DNA from: Escherichia coli
GTDB taxonomy: Bacteria; Pseudomonadota; Gammaproteobacteria; Enterobacterales; Enterobacteriaceae
DNA length: 64,000 nt
Assembly (NCBI RefSeq): GCF_045037415.1
Contig: NZ_CP173438.1
Direction: 5' to 3' (one strand)
Shown here: positions 34,580 through 40,320 of the stretch, one piece after another
Numbering within the stretch: position 1 is the first letter of the stretch
How the letters are laid out: every line of letters begins with the position of its first letter
Position numbers and translations under genes: made by a program
The notes under the pieces: generated by a model
What the model was told of the DNA's origin: nothing
Databases searched by the model: none
Seen by the model: the letters and a program-made list of their open reading frames with translations, nothing else

Positions 34580-35557
<978 letters not shown>

Positions 35558-35751
35558 TTATCGTTATGATCTACAAAGGCCACCAGCATAACAAATCCGT
35601 GGTCGGTGACAAAAAAAGCAAATTTCGCTTATTAAAACTACATATTGATTGAAGTTTGAATAATCGAGCGATTTTTTAAAAAAGTTTGTTGACCTCAGGT
35701 CATGATTTCCCTAAATTAGCGCCCGTTCCAGCAAGACAGGAACGACAATTT

Positions 35752-35839
35752 GGTGAGGTGTCCGAGTGGCTGAAGGAGCACGCCTGGAAAGTGTGTATAC
35801 GGCAACGTATCGGGGGTTCGAATCCCCCCCTCACCGCCA
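35752..35839 (+). tRNA. serX: tRNA-Ser (anticodon GGA)
   Basis: GGTGAGGTGTCCGAGTGGCTGAAGGAGCACGCCTGGAAAGTGTGTATACGGCAACGTATCGGGGGTTCGAATCCCCCCCTCACCGCCA: acceptor stem pairs with the 3' end, long variable arm typical of class II Ser tRNA, GGA anticodon, encoded CCA. Confidence 0.93.
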
Positions 35840-35848
35840 TATTTAAAG

Positions 35849-35880
35849 AAGAGCTCGTACGAAAGTACGAGCTTTTTTTT
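35849..35880 (+). terminator. Rho-independent terminator of serX
   Basis: Hairpin gagctcgtac-gaaa-gtacgagc followed by 8 T. Confidence 0.85.
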
Positions 35881-35943
35881 CGTATATTGCATACACCGGG
35901 GGGATGAGAAGCCCCAGGCGGAGGTTGACAACTAGCGACAGAC

Positions 35944-37311
35944 TCATTCATCATCCTTGCGGTTGATAAGAATTTCTGCCTCTTTTACTACCACCTTATT
36001 ACGCCCGGTCTCTTTCGCCTCGTAAAGTGCGTTATCAGCCAGTTGATAGATCTCCTTAGGGTTTAACTCATTTTTCTGCGTTACAACAGCGCCAATACTA
36101 ATCGTCACTTTTTGTGGTATGGCGTATTCAGGATTATCGCCAGTTAAACGTTCAACATTTTCCCGAATCCTTTCCGCTAAAGCTTTCGCACATTCAGTAT
36201 CGATCTCCGTCAGCAAGACGCCAAACTCTTCGCCGCCAACGCGCGCTAAAAGGTCATCTGGTCGTATGCTTTTCCCAATGATATTCACCACTGTCTTTAT
36301 CACTTGATCGCCAACCGGATGTCCCCAGGTGTCGTTGACTTTTTTGAAGTGGTCAATATCCATAATCATGACGCAATAAGGTGTTTTTTTGGCCGATGCT
36401 GATTGAACCGTCAGTTCATTAAAAAAATAATTTCTGTTGAATATATTGGTTAAGGGATCGCGATGTGCAATGTCCTTTGTTACTCGTAGCGCACTGAATA
36501 TATGGCACATAAAAATTACCAAAACGGTTAACTTACTGACTACTTCAATAGTGCGACTAATATACCAAATGGACACGCTATACCTGCTCATAAATAACAG
36601 AGAGATATTGTACAGCACGGCACAAAAAGCAATCACCGACACCCCGTTCCAGATATCACAGCGTAAACCATTAAAGTATAGATTAACCGAAAGCAAGGTT
36701 AACCACATGAAAATCATTATGGTAACATATGAGGCTTTCCAAACCACCTGACCATTTTCATTGGTTAACTCGGCAATGTGTAAATCGTAGCTCTCATAAT
36801 GGCTAGAAAATATGTGAGCAACTATCGGCCCCCCAAGAACAAAAAACAAACTTATGCACAAAGTCACTTTTTTGGAAAATAAATTGCGCTGTTTTGTGTT
36901 TTCACTAACTTTATTTATCAATGCCAGAAATATTAACATGCACAAACTCATCTGACGAAACAAATAATAAATTGCAATGTCATTTTGAACAACACTGCTT
37001 GTCAAACGCCCCTCAATAATTTGCTGAATGATAATGACGGTTTTAACAAAGTAAATCAAACAACTTAGAAAAGCCAAACTAAGTATACAGTTTGAAAATT
37101 GCCTACGGTCATAAATGAAATACAACTGCATAAAAATAAATGCAACAGTATCGATAAAAAATAAAGCAATCATAACCATCAGATAGGTTGATCGTGGAAC
37201 AACTTCCTCAACGGTTGGCTGATTGAACCAACTATTAACCAAAACCAATGCAAGCCCAAACAATAAGCTCACTAATACAGTACTACTAATTCCCAAATAG
37301 TCTTTTTCCAT
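35944..37311 (-). CDS. dgcT: Membrane-anchored diguanylate cyclase DgcT (YcdT); about 455 aa from this ATG
   Basis: Protein from MEKDYLGISSTVLVSLLFGLALV... has multiple N-terminal TM helices and a C-terminal GGDEF domain (RVGGEEFGVLL); ATG at 37311. The track extension to 37434 starts on TTG right after a stop and was trimmed. Confidence 0.88.
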   Translation of the reverse strand: MEKDYLGISSTVLVSLLFGLALVLVNSWFNQPTVEEVVPRSTYLMVMIALFFIDTVAFIFMQLYFIYDRRQFSNCILSLAFLSCLIYFVKTVIIIQQIIEGRLTSSVVQNDIAIYYLFRQMSLCMLIFLALINKVSENTKQRNLFSKKVTLCISLFFVLGGPIVAHIFSSHYESYDLHIAELTNENGQVVWKASYVTIMIFMWLTLLSVNLYFNGLRCDIWNGVSVIAFCAVLYNISLLFMSRYSVSIWYISRTIEVVSKLTVLVIFMCHIFSALRVTKDIAHRDPLTNIFNRNYFFNELTVQSASAKKTPYCVMIMDIDHFKKVNDTWGHPVGDQVIKTVVNIIGKSIRPDDLLARVGGEEFGVLLTEIDTECAKALAERIRENVERLTGDNPEYAIPQKVTISIGAVVTQKNELNPKEIYQLADNALYEAKETGRNKVVVKEAEILINRKDDE

Positions 37312-37434
37312 AAAGCTACACCAACCTGTAGGTTGTAGATCCCTTTTTATTATTAATAGATATAAGAACTGTACTGTTGTCAATATGAAAATCCACCCAC
37401 AAACAATACCGATGATGATAGTTGCAGAATGCAA

Positions 37435-37896
37435 TTATTATCACTTTAATGCTTTATACATTTTTTGCTGCAAGGCAGGCGCAAATACTTATAAAAGATT
37501 ATAATAAAATCCTTATAAAGCATTAATTAATAGATACATTAGGAATAACAATTAAATCCGTGAGTGCAGTAGCGCTGCCTTTCATCAGGACTTTCGAAAA
37601 ATCCGAAATCATGCATCGGAATTTACTGATTTAATTATTTTAATCCTAATTTATTTTGAAAAAGGTATTGGGATTTATGCCGTATTCCTGAAGATCCTCA
37701 TCATTGGAATGGATTTTCGGGCGAGAAAAGGATTTTATATGGACACTCTGCTCATCATTTCTTCTTCTCATCATCAACAATTCACGTCTCTCTTCCGCGT
37801 TTAATAACGGATTATGAGATGCAAAAATATCTTTCTTTTCAGTTACCTGTAATTAGATACAGAGAGAGATTTTGGCAATACATGGAGTAATACAGG
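37435..37896 (+). promoter_or_regulatory. ycdT / pgaA divergent intergenic region with the long pgaA leader (CsrA-regulated)
   Basis: 462-bp AT-rich non-coding block with several GGA motifs, including caggatg overlapping the pgaA Shine-Dalgarno and ATG. CsrA repression of pgaA via leader GGA sites is established; exact sites were not mapped. Confidence 0.7.
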
Positions 37897-40320
37897 ATGT
37901 ATTCAAGTAGCAGAAAAAGGTGCCCGAAAACCAAATGGGCTTTGAAAATTCTTACTGCTGCATTTTTAGCAGCGAGTCCCGCGGCGAAGAGTGCTGTTAA
38001 TAACGCCTATGATGCATTGATTATTGAAGCTCGCAAAGGAAATACTCAGCCAGCTTTGTCATGGTTTGCACAAAAATCAACACTCAGTAATAACCAAATT
38101 GCTGACTGGTTACAGATTGCCTTATGGGCCGGGCAAGATAAACAGGTTATTACCGTTTACAACCGCTATCGTCATCAGCAATTACCAGCGCGTGGTTATG
38201 CAGCTGTCGCCGTCGCTTATCGTAACCTGCAACAATGGCAAAACTCGCTTACACTGTGGCAAAAGGCGCTCTCTCTGGAGCCGCAAAATAAGGATTATCA
38301 ACGGGGACAAATTTTAACCCTGGCAGATGCGGGTCACTATGATACTGCGCTGTTTAAACTTAAGCAGCTTAAATCTGGAGCACCGGACAAAGCCAATTTA
38401 CTCGCAGAAGCCTATATCTATAAACTGACGGGGCGTTATCAGGATGAATTACGGGCGATGACAGAGTCATTACCTGAAAATGCATCTAAGCAACAATATC
38501 CCACAGAATACGTGCTGGCATTACGTAATAATCAACTAGCTGCCGCGATTGACGATGCCAATTTAACGCCAGATATTCGCGCTGATATTCATGCCGAACT
38601 GGTCAGACTGTCGTTTATGCCTACGCGCAGTGAAAATGAACGTTATGCCATTGCCGATCGCGCCCTCGCCCAATACGCTGCATTAGAAATTCTGTGGCAC
38701 GATAACCCAGACCGCACTGCCCAGTACCAGCGTATTCAGGTTGATCATCTTGGCGCGTTATTAACTCGCGATCGTTATAGAGACGTTATTTCTCACTATC
38801 AGCGTTTAAAAAAGACGGGGCAAATTATTCCGCCCTGGGCGCTATATTGGGTTGCGTCGGCTTATCTCAAAGATCAGCAGCCGAAAAAAGCACAGTCAAT
38901 AATGACCGAGCTCTTTTATAACAAGGAAACCATTGCCACGGATTTATCCGATGAAGAACTTGCGGATCTCTTTTACAGCCACCTGGAGAGTGAAAATTAT
39001 CCCGGCGCGCTAACTGTCACCAAACATACCATTAATACTTCGCCGCCTTTCCTTCGGCTAATGGGCACGCCTACGAGCATCCCGAATGATACCTGGTTAC
39101 AGGGGCATTCGTTTCTCTCAACCGTAGCAAAATATAGTAATGATCTTCCTCAAGCTGAAATAACAACCAGAGAACTTGCTTATAACGCACCAGGAAATCA
39201 GGGACTGCGCATCGATTACGCGAGTGTGTTACAAGCCCGCGGTTGGCCTCGTGCGGCAGAAAATGAATTAAAAAAAGCAGAAGTGATCGAGCCACGTAAT
39301 ATTAATCTGGAGGTTGAACAAGCCTGGACAGCATTAACGTTACAAGAATGGCAGCAGGCAGCTGTCTTAACCCACGATGTTGTCGAACGTGAACCGCAAG
39401 ATCCCGGCGTTGTACGATTAAAACGTGCGGTTGATGTACATAATCTTGCAGAGCTTCGTATCGCTGGCTCAACAGGAATTGATGCCGAAGGTCCAGATAG
39501 TGGCAAACATGATGTCGACTTAACCACCATCGTTTATTCACCACCGCTGAATGATAACTGGCGCGGTTTTGCTGGATTCGGTTATGCCGATGGACAATTT
39601 AGCGAAGGAAAAGGGATTGTTCGCGACTGGCTGGCAGGTGTTGAGTGGCGGTCACGTAATATCTGGCTCGAGGCGGAGTACGCTGAACGCTTTTTCAATC
39701 ATGAGCATAAACCCGGCGCGCGCCTGTCTGGCTGGTATGATTTTAATGATAACTGGCGTATTGGTTCGCAACTGGAACGCCTCTCTCACCGCGTTCCATT
39801 ACGGGCAATGAAAAATGGTGTTACAGGCAACAGCGCACAGGCTTATGTTCGCTGGTATCAAAATGAGCGGCGTAAGTACGGTGTCTCCTGGGCTTTCACT
39901 GATTTTTCCGACAGTAACCAGCGTCATGAAGTCTCAATTGAGGGTCAAGAACGCATCTGGTCTTCACCATATTTGATTGTCGATTTCCTACCCAATCTGT
40001 ATTACGAACAAAATACAGAACACGACACCCCATACTACAACCCTATAAAAATGTTCGATATTGTTCCGGCATTTGAGGCAAGTCATTTGTTATGGCGAAG
40101 CTATGAAAATAGCTGGGAGCAAATATTCAGCGCAGGTGTTGGTGCCTCCTGGCAAAAACATTATGGCACGGATGTCGTCACCCAACTCGGCTACGGGCAA
40201 CGTATTAGCTGGAATGACGTGATTGATGCTGGCGCAACGCTACGCTGGGAAAAACGACCTTATGACGGTGACAGAGAACACAACTTATACGTTGAATTCG
40301 ATATGACATTCAGATTTTAA
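37897..40320 (+). CDS. pgaA: Poly-beta-1,6-N-acetylglucosamine (PGA) outer membrane export porin PgaA (807 aa)
   Basis: Protein MYSSSRKRCPKTKWALKILTAAFLAASPAAKSAVNNAYDALIIEARKGN..., TPR-like N-terminus and beta-barrel C-terminus; ATG at 37897. Confidence 0.95.
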   Translation: MYSSSRKRCPKTKWALKILTAAFLAASPAAKSAVNNAYDALIIEARKGNTQPALSWFAQKSTLSNNQIADWLQIALWAGQDKQVITVYNRYRHQQLPARGYAAVAVAYRNLQQWQNSLTLWQKALSLEPQNKDYQRGQILTLADAGHYDTALFKLKQLKSGAPDKANLLAEAYIYKLTGRYQDELRAMTESLPENASKQQYPTEYVLALRNNQLAAAIDDANLTPDIRADIHAELVRLSFMPTRSENERYAIADRALAQYAALEILWHDNPDRTAQYQRIQVDHLGALLTRDRYRDVISHYQRLKKTGQIIPPWALYWVASAYLKDQQPKKAQSIMTELFYNKETIATDLSDEELADLFYSHLESENYPGALTVTKHTINTSPPFLRLMGTPTSIPNDTWLQGHSFLSTVAKYSNDLPQAEITTRELAYNAPGNQGLRIDYASVLQARGWPRAAENELKKAEVIEPRNINLEVEQAWTALTLQEWQQAAVLTHDVVEREPQDPGVVRLKRAVDVHNLAELRIAGSTGIDAEGPDSGKHDVDLTTIVYSPPLNDNWRGFAGFGYADGQFSEGKGIVRDWLAGVEWRSRNIWLEAEYAERFFNHEHKPGARLSGWYDFNDNWRIGSQLERLSHRVPLRAMKNGVTGNSAQAYVRWYQNERRKYGVSWAFTDFSDSNQRHEVSIEGQERIWSSPYLIVDFLPNLYYEQNTEHDTPYYNPIKMFDIVPAFEASHLLWRSYENSWEQIFSAGVGASWQKHYGTDVVTQLGYGQRISWNDVIDAGATLRWEKRPYDGDREHNLYVEFDMTFRF

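Follow-up and report, generated by a model that had tools for sequence, protein, structure and literature searches.

The interval upstream of pgaA in an Escherichia coli chromosome very probably comprises the NhaR-dependent promoter and the known CsrA-controlled leader of pgaABCD

The operon pgaABCD serves the synthesis of the biofilm adhesin poly-β-1,6-N-acetylglucosamine (PGA). We analyzed the DNA upstream of pgaA in a 64,000-nt stretch of Escherichia coli sequence (contig NZ_CP173438.1; the whole stretch is referred to as the window), in which pgaA and the diguanylate cyclase gene dgcT (ycdT) are divergently oriented. The segment from 37300 to 37950 matched several RefSeq chromosomes at 100% identity and K-12 at about 95.6%, all matches being annotated as pgaA or dgcT; by its sequence, the window is E. 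coli. The genes next to the interval are the following:

37897 to 40320, plus strand: coding sequence of pgaA, 807 codons (amino acids), from the open reading frame (ORF) list and the annotation; 97% identity to E. coli PgaA
from 40329, plus strand: pgaB, directly after pgaA, from the ORF list and the annotation
35944 to 37311, minus strand: coding sequence of dgcT (ycdT), a MASE4-GGDEF diguanylate cyclase; RefSeq annotation mapped from the 100%-identical strain 1436

A first-pass annotation of the window had treated the 462 bp upstream of pgaA (37435 to 37899, start codon included) as the pgaA leader. This boundary is wrong because 37435 merely borders a maximal minus-strand ORF, which reaches a TTG at 37434; in the 100%-identical strain 1436, the RefSeq start of dgcT is instead the ATG at 37311, from which the translation begins MEKDYLGISS. 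On this annotation, the true dgcT-pgaA intergenic region is 37312 to 37896 (585 bp), and only its last ~234 nt are transcribed into the pgaA mRNA. The promoter and the leader were delimited as follows:

37539 to 37662, plus strand: pgaA promoter region (-124 to -1), 98.4% identical to K-12
37594 to 37606 (-69 to -57), plus strand: candidate NhaR box (LysR-type, T-N11-A) TCGAAAAATCCGA, proposed from consensus and conservation
37652 to 37657, plus strand: likely -10 hexamer TATTTT, proposed from its position relative to the published transcription start site (TSS) and from the alignment
37663 to 37896, plus strand: pgaA 5′ untranslated leader of ~234 nt, K-12 numbering transferred by alignment

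The pgaABCD transcript of K-12 has a 234-nt 5′ untranslated region (UTR) (Wang et al. 2005, as reported in PMC4052769), and a fragment from -124 to +234 is sufficient for regulated pgaA expression (Figueroa-Bossi et al. 2014). Position +1 corresponds to 37663 in the numbering of Wang 2005 and Figueroa-Bossi and to 37665 in the UTR annotation of Potts 2017, so the TSS is placed to within 2 nt. NhaR is an activator of the pgaABCD promoter and is itself translationally repressed by CsrA. The candidate NhaR box matched the proposed consensus TCgaAAAAatCtA at 10 of 13 positions and lies in a conserved block of the cross-genus alignment, and the putative -10 hexamer aligns with TATAGT in Citrobacter and with TACTTT in a divergent Escherichia. 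A consensus promoter scan returned no plus-strand sigma-70 match, as is to be expected of a promoter that depends on an activator. A scan for intrinsic terminators found none in the region.

Alignment of the leader with that of K-12 showed 232 of 234 positions to be identical (99.1%) and no indels. The two substitutions (37666, T/C; 37819, A/G) both lie outside GGA triplets, and all GGAs, the hairpin at +61 to +107, the Rho utilization (rut) tract, the Shine-Dalgarno sequence (SD) and the AUG are unchanged. The indel-free alignment extends from about 37512 to the ATG. Because the leader differs from K-12 at only 2 of 234 positions, none of them in a GGA, the published K-12 results carry over. 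By this near-identity, the sequence is the known E. coli pgaA leader itself, already described, and not merely a similar one; the earlier proposal of a CsrA-repressed pgaA leader is thereby borne out, since CsrA binding and repression have been demonstrated experimentally for the K-12 leader.

Several GGA triplets, the core of CsrA motifs, had been noticed upstream of pgaA, and 11 were indeed found on the plus strand of 37435 to 37899. Those at 37542, 37588 and 37618 (3 of the 11) fall in promoter DNA, outside the mRNA, and are irrelevant to CsrA because they are DNA and not RNA. The remaining eight lie inside the transcript, at 37671 (+9), 37706 (+44), 37711 (+49), 37730 (+68), 37741 (+79), 37809 (+147), 37884 (+222, in the SD) and 37895 (+233, at the AUG). 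The motif caggatg at 37893 to 37899 had been read as spanning both the ribosome binding site and the start codon. Its GGA (37895 to 37897) does share its A with the ATG at 37897 to 37899, but the actual SD is the GGAG at 37884 to 37887, 9 nt upstream of the ATG, and thus contains the other GGA. The published CsrA sites were located on the leader as follows:

37728 to 37732 (+66 to +70), plus strand: CsrA site 1, AAGGA, published, on the hairpin's left arm
37739 to 37743 (+77 to +81), plus strand: CsrA site 2, AUGGA, published, on the hairpin's left arm
37807 to 37811 (+145 to +149), plus strand: probable CsrA site 3, ACGGA, assigned by elimination from the six reported sites
37861 to 37869, plus strand: probable CsrA site 4, the GGA-less AGAGAGAGA
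37882 to 37887, plus strand: CsrA site 5, AUGGAG over the SD GGAG (AUGGA at +220 to +224), published
37891 to 37899, plus strand: CsrA site 6, UACAGGAUG, with the GGA at 37895 to 37897 overlapping the AUG (CAGGA at +231 to +235), published, invariant in 6 of 6 leaders
37680 to 37797 (about +18 to +135), plus strand: equivalent of the K-12 CsrA peak from cross-linking and immunoprecipitation sequencing (CLIP-seq), Peak_111 of the Potts 2017 supplement (K-12 1092388 to 1092506)

CsrA protects six sites in the K-12 leader (Wang et al. 2005, as reported in PMC4052769). The direct evidence for the K-12 allele comprises footprinting, gel shift, CLIP-seq and ribosome profiling, and the translation efficiency of pgaA was increased in a csrA mutant. 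Translational repression requires the two sites at the SD and the AUG, which compete with the 30S subunit and cause the greater part of it. Two sites within +61 to +81 govern a Rho terminator via the hairpin at +61 to +107, and mutants that stabilize or destabilize this hairpin act accordingly, both in vivo and in purified transcription (Figueroa-Bossi et al. 2014). For the K-12 sequence, experiments both in vitro and in vivo have demonstrated termination that depends on Rho and on CsrA, and a 2025 review still gives CsrA/Rho attenuation as the accepted mechanism for pgaA. The first-pass annotation had named translational repression as the mode of CsrA action; this fits the SD and AUG sites but is incomplete, as the +68 and +79 sites induce Rho-dependent termination. 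When the GGAs of the window were compared with the published sites, those at the SD, at the AUG and at +68/+79 matched, while one reported site apparently is a GGA-less AGAGA. AGAGA figures in the literature as a secondary CsrA site, for which Wang 2005 (pgaA) is given as the source, and ACGGA as a primary CsrA motif; degenerate sites rich in AG have been mentioned for pgaA as well. The functional pairs +68/+79 and +222/+233 are each 11 nt apart, and the published range for dual-site binding is 10 to 63 nt.

The folding of the leader was examined with RNAfold, together with the composition downstream of sites 1 and 2.

37723 to 37769 (+61 to +107), plus strand: anti-terminator hairpin, from RNAfold, the published structure and mutational analysis
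37744 to 37800, plus strand: rut region, C-rich and G-poor, from composition and the published rut assignment

This discontinuous hairpin, which Figueroa-Bossi et al. described, was found in all folds and with every 5′ prefix, with a local free energy of -6.4 kcal/mol. Its left arm (37723 to 37743) holds sites 1 and 2, and its right arm is the beginning of the C-rich, G-poor tract. This tract contains 21 C and 4 G in 57 nt, which places it in the top 0.1% of plus-strand segments for C minus G. A GGA in a hairpin loop is the canonical high-affinity presentation to CsrA, and loop placement had been proposed as a check of the motifs. The outcome was mixed: the functional GGAs at +68 and +79 are predicted to be paired in the stem arm (unpaired probability of the Gs, ≤0.16), and the only GGA in a predicted loop is that at +9, which is absent from the published sites. 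Only the two GGAs at the SD and the AUG come out as largely single stranded in the prediction, the unpaired probability being 0.64 to 0.86 at five of their six bases and 0.42 at the A that also belongs to the AUG (SD GGA at 37884, 0.64 to 0.79; AUG GGA, 0.81, 0.86 and 0.42). The leader thus has A(N)GGA motifs in pairs, together with accessible ones at the SD and AUG, as do direct CsrA targets, as well as a hairpin with a rut tract immediately downstream of CsrA sites, as in the pgaA-type Rho attenuator. An Rfam 15 scan of 35500 to 38500 gave no covariance-model match in 37312 to 37900 even at E≤1; the only matches, at 35741 to 35925, were a tRNA-Ser and sub-threshold noise.

Taken as a whole, the interval very probably represents an NhaR-dependent promoter followed by the ~234-nt leader of pgaABCD, a CsrA operator that acts at two levels. 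The mechanism was shown for K-12 and is applied to the window by the near-identity of the sequences. At the level of transcription, a marginally stable hairpin at +61 to +107 would pair the GGAs of sites 1 and 2 with the rut tract's 5′ half. A CsrA dimer would nucleate at AAGGA (+66 to +70), open the hairpin and expose rut, upon which Rho would terminate transcription inside the leader. On transcripts that escape, a CsrA dimer would bridge AUGGAG at the SD and CAGGAUG at the start codon and exclude the 30S subunit, so that translation would be repressed and the mRNA destabilized. Titration of CsrA by CsrB, CsrC or McaS would lift both levels. Base-pairing by McaS as the primary mode of regulation was considered and rejected, as the published evidence is that McaS titrates CsrA.

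We then compared the leader with those of related loci, namely, a divergent Escherichia (L003, PgaA identity of 80%), a further lineage (L011, 76%) and two Citrobacter (L004 and L005, 73 to 74%); a scan of genome contigs for wider conservation gave only four loci. The counts below refer to six Escherichia/Citrobacter-like leaders, a clade with PgaA identities of 73 to 80%. GGA positions were invariant more often than other positions of the leader (12 of 24 versus 44 of 213; Fisher one-sided P=0.0027). All six leaders have the GGAs at +9, +68 and +233 unchanged, and five retain the SD GGA, which in Citrobacter is displaced by 1 nt. No invariant runs in the leader were longer than AAAGGA (37727 to 37732) and TACAGGATG (37891 to 37899). 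The lower helix of the +61 to +107 hairpin was 80% paired across the six sequences, with three pairs changed on both sides. Its covariation score was 0.229; shuffles gave 0.138±0.028, and none of the 500 reached the observed value. The score also exceeded all slid controls, the sequences being few and related and the structure being derived from one of them. According to this comparison, the core under constraint probably consists of site 1 (the published point of nucleation), site 6 at the AUG and the lower helix of the hairpin.

Distant pgaA homologs (35 to 58% identity) in Klebsiella, Plesiomonas, IncX/IncFIB plasmid copies, Enterobacter and a 58% metagenomic lineage did not share the leader, and some of them had a different small ORF directly upstream. 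As far as the sequences compared indicate, the leader architecture is restricted to the Escherichia/Citrobacter-like clade. Two other arrangements were seen among the distant homologs. Enterobacter-type pga loci (PgaA identity of 49 to 52%) have, in place of a long CsrA-type leader, a conserved ORF of ~76 to 78 amino acids immediately upstream of pgaA, for which no Pfam match was found:

L014, 1232 to 1468, and L015, 1140 to 1370: upstream ORF of the Enterobacter-type loci

A second, distant pgaA type (37% identity) occurs on many plasmids of E. coli, Enterobacter and Klebsiella (matches H70 to H91). In one example (L009, NZ_CP080068.1), it lies beside IS26, and this type has few or no GGAs upstream of the annotated start.

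The GGAs might instead be a by-product of base or dinucleotide composition in AT-rich intergenic DNA and have no function in this strain. The frequency of the triplet exceeded what base composition predicts, as the first-pass annotation had required, when the leader was compared with mononucleotide shuffles (8 versus 2.5 in 237 nt; P=0.002), but the excess was only marginal against dinucleotide shuffles (8 versus 5.5; P=0.09). For the whole of 37435 to 37899, the dinucleotide comparison gave 11 versus 7.0 (P=0.03). The leader ranks in the top ~1% among 237-nt segments of the 64 kb; thus, about 1% of them reach the same count, which, like the modest dinucleotide excess, is what a compositional origin would allow. 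The count alone is suggestive, being moderate and not decisive evidence, and conservation is the stronger argument. A compositional origin does not account for an excess on one strand only (same-strand TCC in the leader, 3 versus 2.7 expected), for the preferential conservation of GGA positions across genera or for a leader that is more conserved with respect to K-12 (99.1%) than are the third codon positions of pgaA (95.9%), the promoter and dgcT being 98.4% and 94.3% identical. It also conflicts with the footprints, CLIP data and mutational analyses in the literature, which were obtained with an essentially identical sequence (99%) for which both binding and mutational effects are on record. 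We therefore assign it a practically negligible probability.

Several observations besides the marginal dinucleotide excess nevertheless weigh against the reading of the interval as the two-level CsrA operator. At least one related lineage has lost site 2 (+79); the same is true of site 3 (+147) and of the SD GGA. The minimum free energy (MFE) of the whole leader was no better than that of shuffled sequence (z=-0.21), and the structural evidence rests on the local hairpin because the whole-leader energy is not distinctive; moreover, MFE folding of the relatives did not give the E. coli hairpin. Sites 3 and 4 are most simply equated with ACGGA at 37807 to 37811 and with AGAGAGAGA, their positions being reconstructed from secondary sources. 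Finally, two single-nucleotide polymorphisms (SNPs) set the allele apart from that of K-12: +157 G>A, and +4 C>U, by which one pair of the 5′ hairpin described below becomes a weaker G-U.

The divergent arrangement had also led to the suggestion that ycdT and pgaA are co-controlled from the region that they share. The following features lie on the dgcT side of the intergenic region:

37307 to 37390, minus strand: dgcT's own 5′ control region, from the minus-strand read and a four-locus dgcT-pgaA alignment; its promoter and CsrA-site roles are putative, and the dgcT TSS is predicted to lie near 37350
37400 to 37538, no strand: variable spacer between the divergent control regions, the least conserved part of the intergenic region

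Upstream of dgcT, we found a perfect TTGACA (37383 to 37378), which the alignment of four dgcT-pgaA loci shows to be conserved; an A(A/U)GGGA/UGGA, also conserved, ~31 nt before the ATG (its GGA at 37342 to 37340); and an AUGGA across the start codon (37311 to 37307). In the dgcT leader (37312 to 37345, minus strand), the AUG is directly preceded by an imperfect inverted repeat, CUACAACC...GGUUGGUGUAG, and the conserved GGA lies just 5′ of this repeat. The literature assigns ycdT to the CsrA targets and places one CsrA site around its SD, and the region of the inverted repeat, GGA and AUGGA could be this site. In a csrA mutant, ycdT ribosome footprints rose by log2 4.4 and its RNA rose by log2 3.1 (Potts 2017). 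The spacer showed 84% identity to K-12 with small indels at 37400 to 37499, while both flanks were 96 to 100% identical; 37312 to 37538 overall was 89.5% identical with indels, compared to 98 to 99% for the pgaA promoter and leader.

A bidirectional element, in which the same GGA motifs control both genes, would agree with several of these facts. The two genes are divergent neighbors in four Escherichia-like lineages at a constant spacing of ~581 to 586 bp, both are upregulated in the csrA mutant, and both feed PGA production. Yet CsrA binds RNA, and the plus-strand GGAs are absent from the ycdT transcript, which has its own TTGACA and GGA within ~75 nt of its ATG (37312 to 37390), outside 37435 to 37899. 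A distance of ~280 bp, which includes the least conserved stretch (37400 to 37538), separates these elements from the pgaA TSS. Furthermore, the fragment from -124 to +234 alone reproduces pgaA regulation, and the Citrobacter loci have the same leader without a divergent dgcT. A shared element is thus highly improbable. The suggested co-control holds insofar as ycdT is derepressed in the csrA mutant, but it acts in trans on ycdT's own opposite-strand mRNA and involves no shared motifs: the co-regulation of ycdT and pgaA by CsrA is real, and it does not run through a shared element.

Variation among strains was also noted around dgcT. A tRNA-Ser gene (anticodon GGA; serX position) lies at 35752 to 35839, directly downstream of dgcT. 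The order in this strain and in strain 1436 is ghrA-tRNA-Ser-dgcT, without IS3 or ycdU, whereas K-12 has IS3, a pseudogene fragment and ycdU there. In NZ_CM190134.1 (strain 23366), which is otherwise 100% identical, an IS1 transposase lies inside the dgcT-pgaA region, and the match falls into two pieces spanning 1427 bp; this insertion could cut pgaA off from its promoter or leader.

Further features of the leader are the following:

37664 to 37681, plus strand: 5′-terminal hairpin, stem of 37664 to 37668 with 37677 to 37681, from folds of growing prefixes
37706 to 37713, plus strand: GGAs at +44 and +49 (UUGGAAUGGA), inside the in vivo CLIP peak, not conserved outside Escherichia
37739 to 37804, plus strand: 21-codon leader ORF (MDTLLIISSSHHQQFTSLFRV, then stop), overlapping rut, with its AUG within site 2 and the AAGGA of site 1 located 6 nt upstream

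The 5′ hairpin presents the +9 GGA (37671 to 37673), which is not among the six published sites, in an 8-nt loop, UGGGAUUU. Its inner 4 bp (GCAU/AUGC) were paired in six of six leaders, with a GC-to-AU compensatory change to ACAU/AUGU in L011; six sequences are too few for this covariation to be statistically significant. In the strain analyzed here, +4 C>U turns one C-G pair of the hairpin into U-G. The CLIP peak begins just 3′ of the hairpin, which counts against an independent role in CsrA binding. As independent CsrA sites, the GGAs at +9, +44 and +49 were disfavored, as mutations of site 1 completely abolish CsrA binding to an RNA of +1 to +137; in addition, the CLIP peak starts at about +18, downstream of +9, and +44 and +49 are not conserved.

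The leader ORF offers another account of sites 1 and 2. These would be the ribosome binding site and start of the 21-codon ORF, the translation of which would shield rut; CsrA, by repressing the ORF, would uncouple translation so that Rho terminates, and this would replace or accompany the opening of the hairpin. The segment AAAGGAUUUNAUAUG (AAGGA, 6-nt spacer, AUG) is conserved in five of six leaders, the exception being L011, where only AAAGGA is kept at this position and an AUG lies 4 nt further downstream. Moreover, L003, L004 and L005, three of the four lineages outside E. coli, have lost the GGA of site 2 but kept the AUG. An ORF of 19 to 21 codons ends at a homologous TAA in four of five lineages, with length differences in multiples of three and a shared ...SLF... 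tail, and it spans the rut segment. A precedent is found in iraD, which CsrA represses through a leader ORF. On the other hand, Figueroa-Bossi et al. (2014), who had considered such a leader peptide, saw no phenotype in an AUG mutant, a frameshift in Citrobacter NCU1 leaves an ORF of only 10 codons, no conservation of the peptide is seen between genera, and C/U-rich sequence is naturally poor in stop codons, so that an open frame is weak evidence. The distance from the ORF stop to the pgaA start is 92 nt, and there is neither overlap nor coupling. We consider this ORF-based mechanism very unlikely. Improbable, too, is the broader proposition that the model with six sites lacks something toward the 5′ end and that the GGA-loop hairpin, the start of the leader ORF or both are functional; we regard the two elements as minor leads. 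If this were true, either element could be a seventh CsrA anchor, a 5′-end stability element or a translation-dependent shield of rut that operates in native hosts or under other conditions.

The closest known system is the K-12 pgaABCD 5′ UTR, which is the same locus with its six-site operator and CsrA-activated Rho attenuator (Wang et al. 2005; Figueroa-Bossi et al. 2014). The window differs from it by the two SNPs in the leader, and its distal intergenic part (89.5%) and dgcT (94.3%) are more diverged; K-12 also has IS3/ycdU downstream of dgcT. In repression of the glgC/cstA type, a GGA in or near the SD and an upstream GGA are bound by one dimer. The pgaA leader likewise has paired motifs, at the SD and the start codon, 11 nt apart and predicted to be single stranded, but it has more sites than any other known mRNA target, an extra Rho layer and upstream functional GGAs in a stem arm and not in a hairpin loop. 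At the trp leader of Bacillus subtilis, TRAP is likewise an RNA-binding protein that remodels a nascent leader to decide between termination and read-through; TRAP favors an intrinsic terminator hairpin, whereas CsrA at pgaA exposes a Rho loading site. The iraD leader has a CsrA-repressed short upstream ORF that is translationally coupled. The pgaA leader similarly has a short ORF with CsrA motifs over its ribosome binding site and AUG; unlike iraD, its start mutant lacks a phenotype, and it is not coupled to the pgaA start.

The system was characterized between 2005 and 2017, and the additions made here are comparative only: a constrained core within the operator and two conserved elements that the published model leaves unexplained, the 5′ hairpin and the start of the leader ORF. 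For annotation, the sequence indicates that the strain carries an intact, K-12-like control region through which CsrA, Rho and NhaR would govern PGA biofilm synthesis, and biofilm regulation in this strain is therefore expected to follow the textbook circuit.

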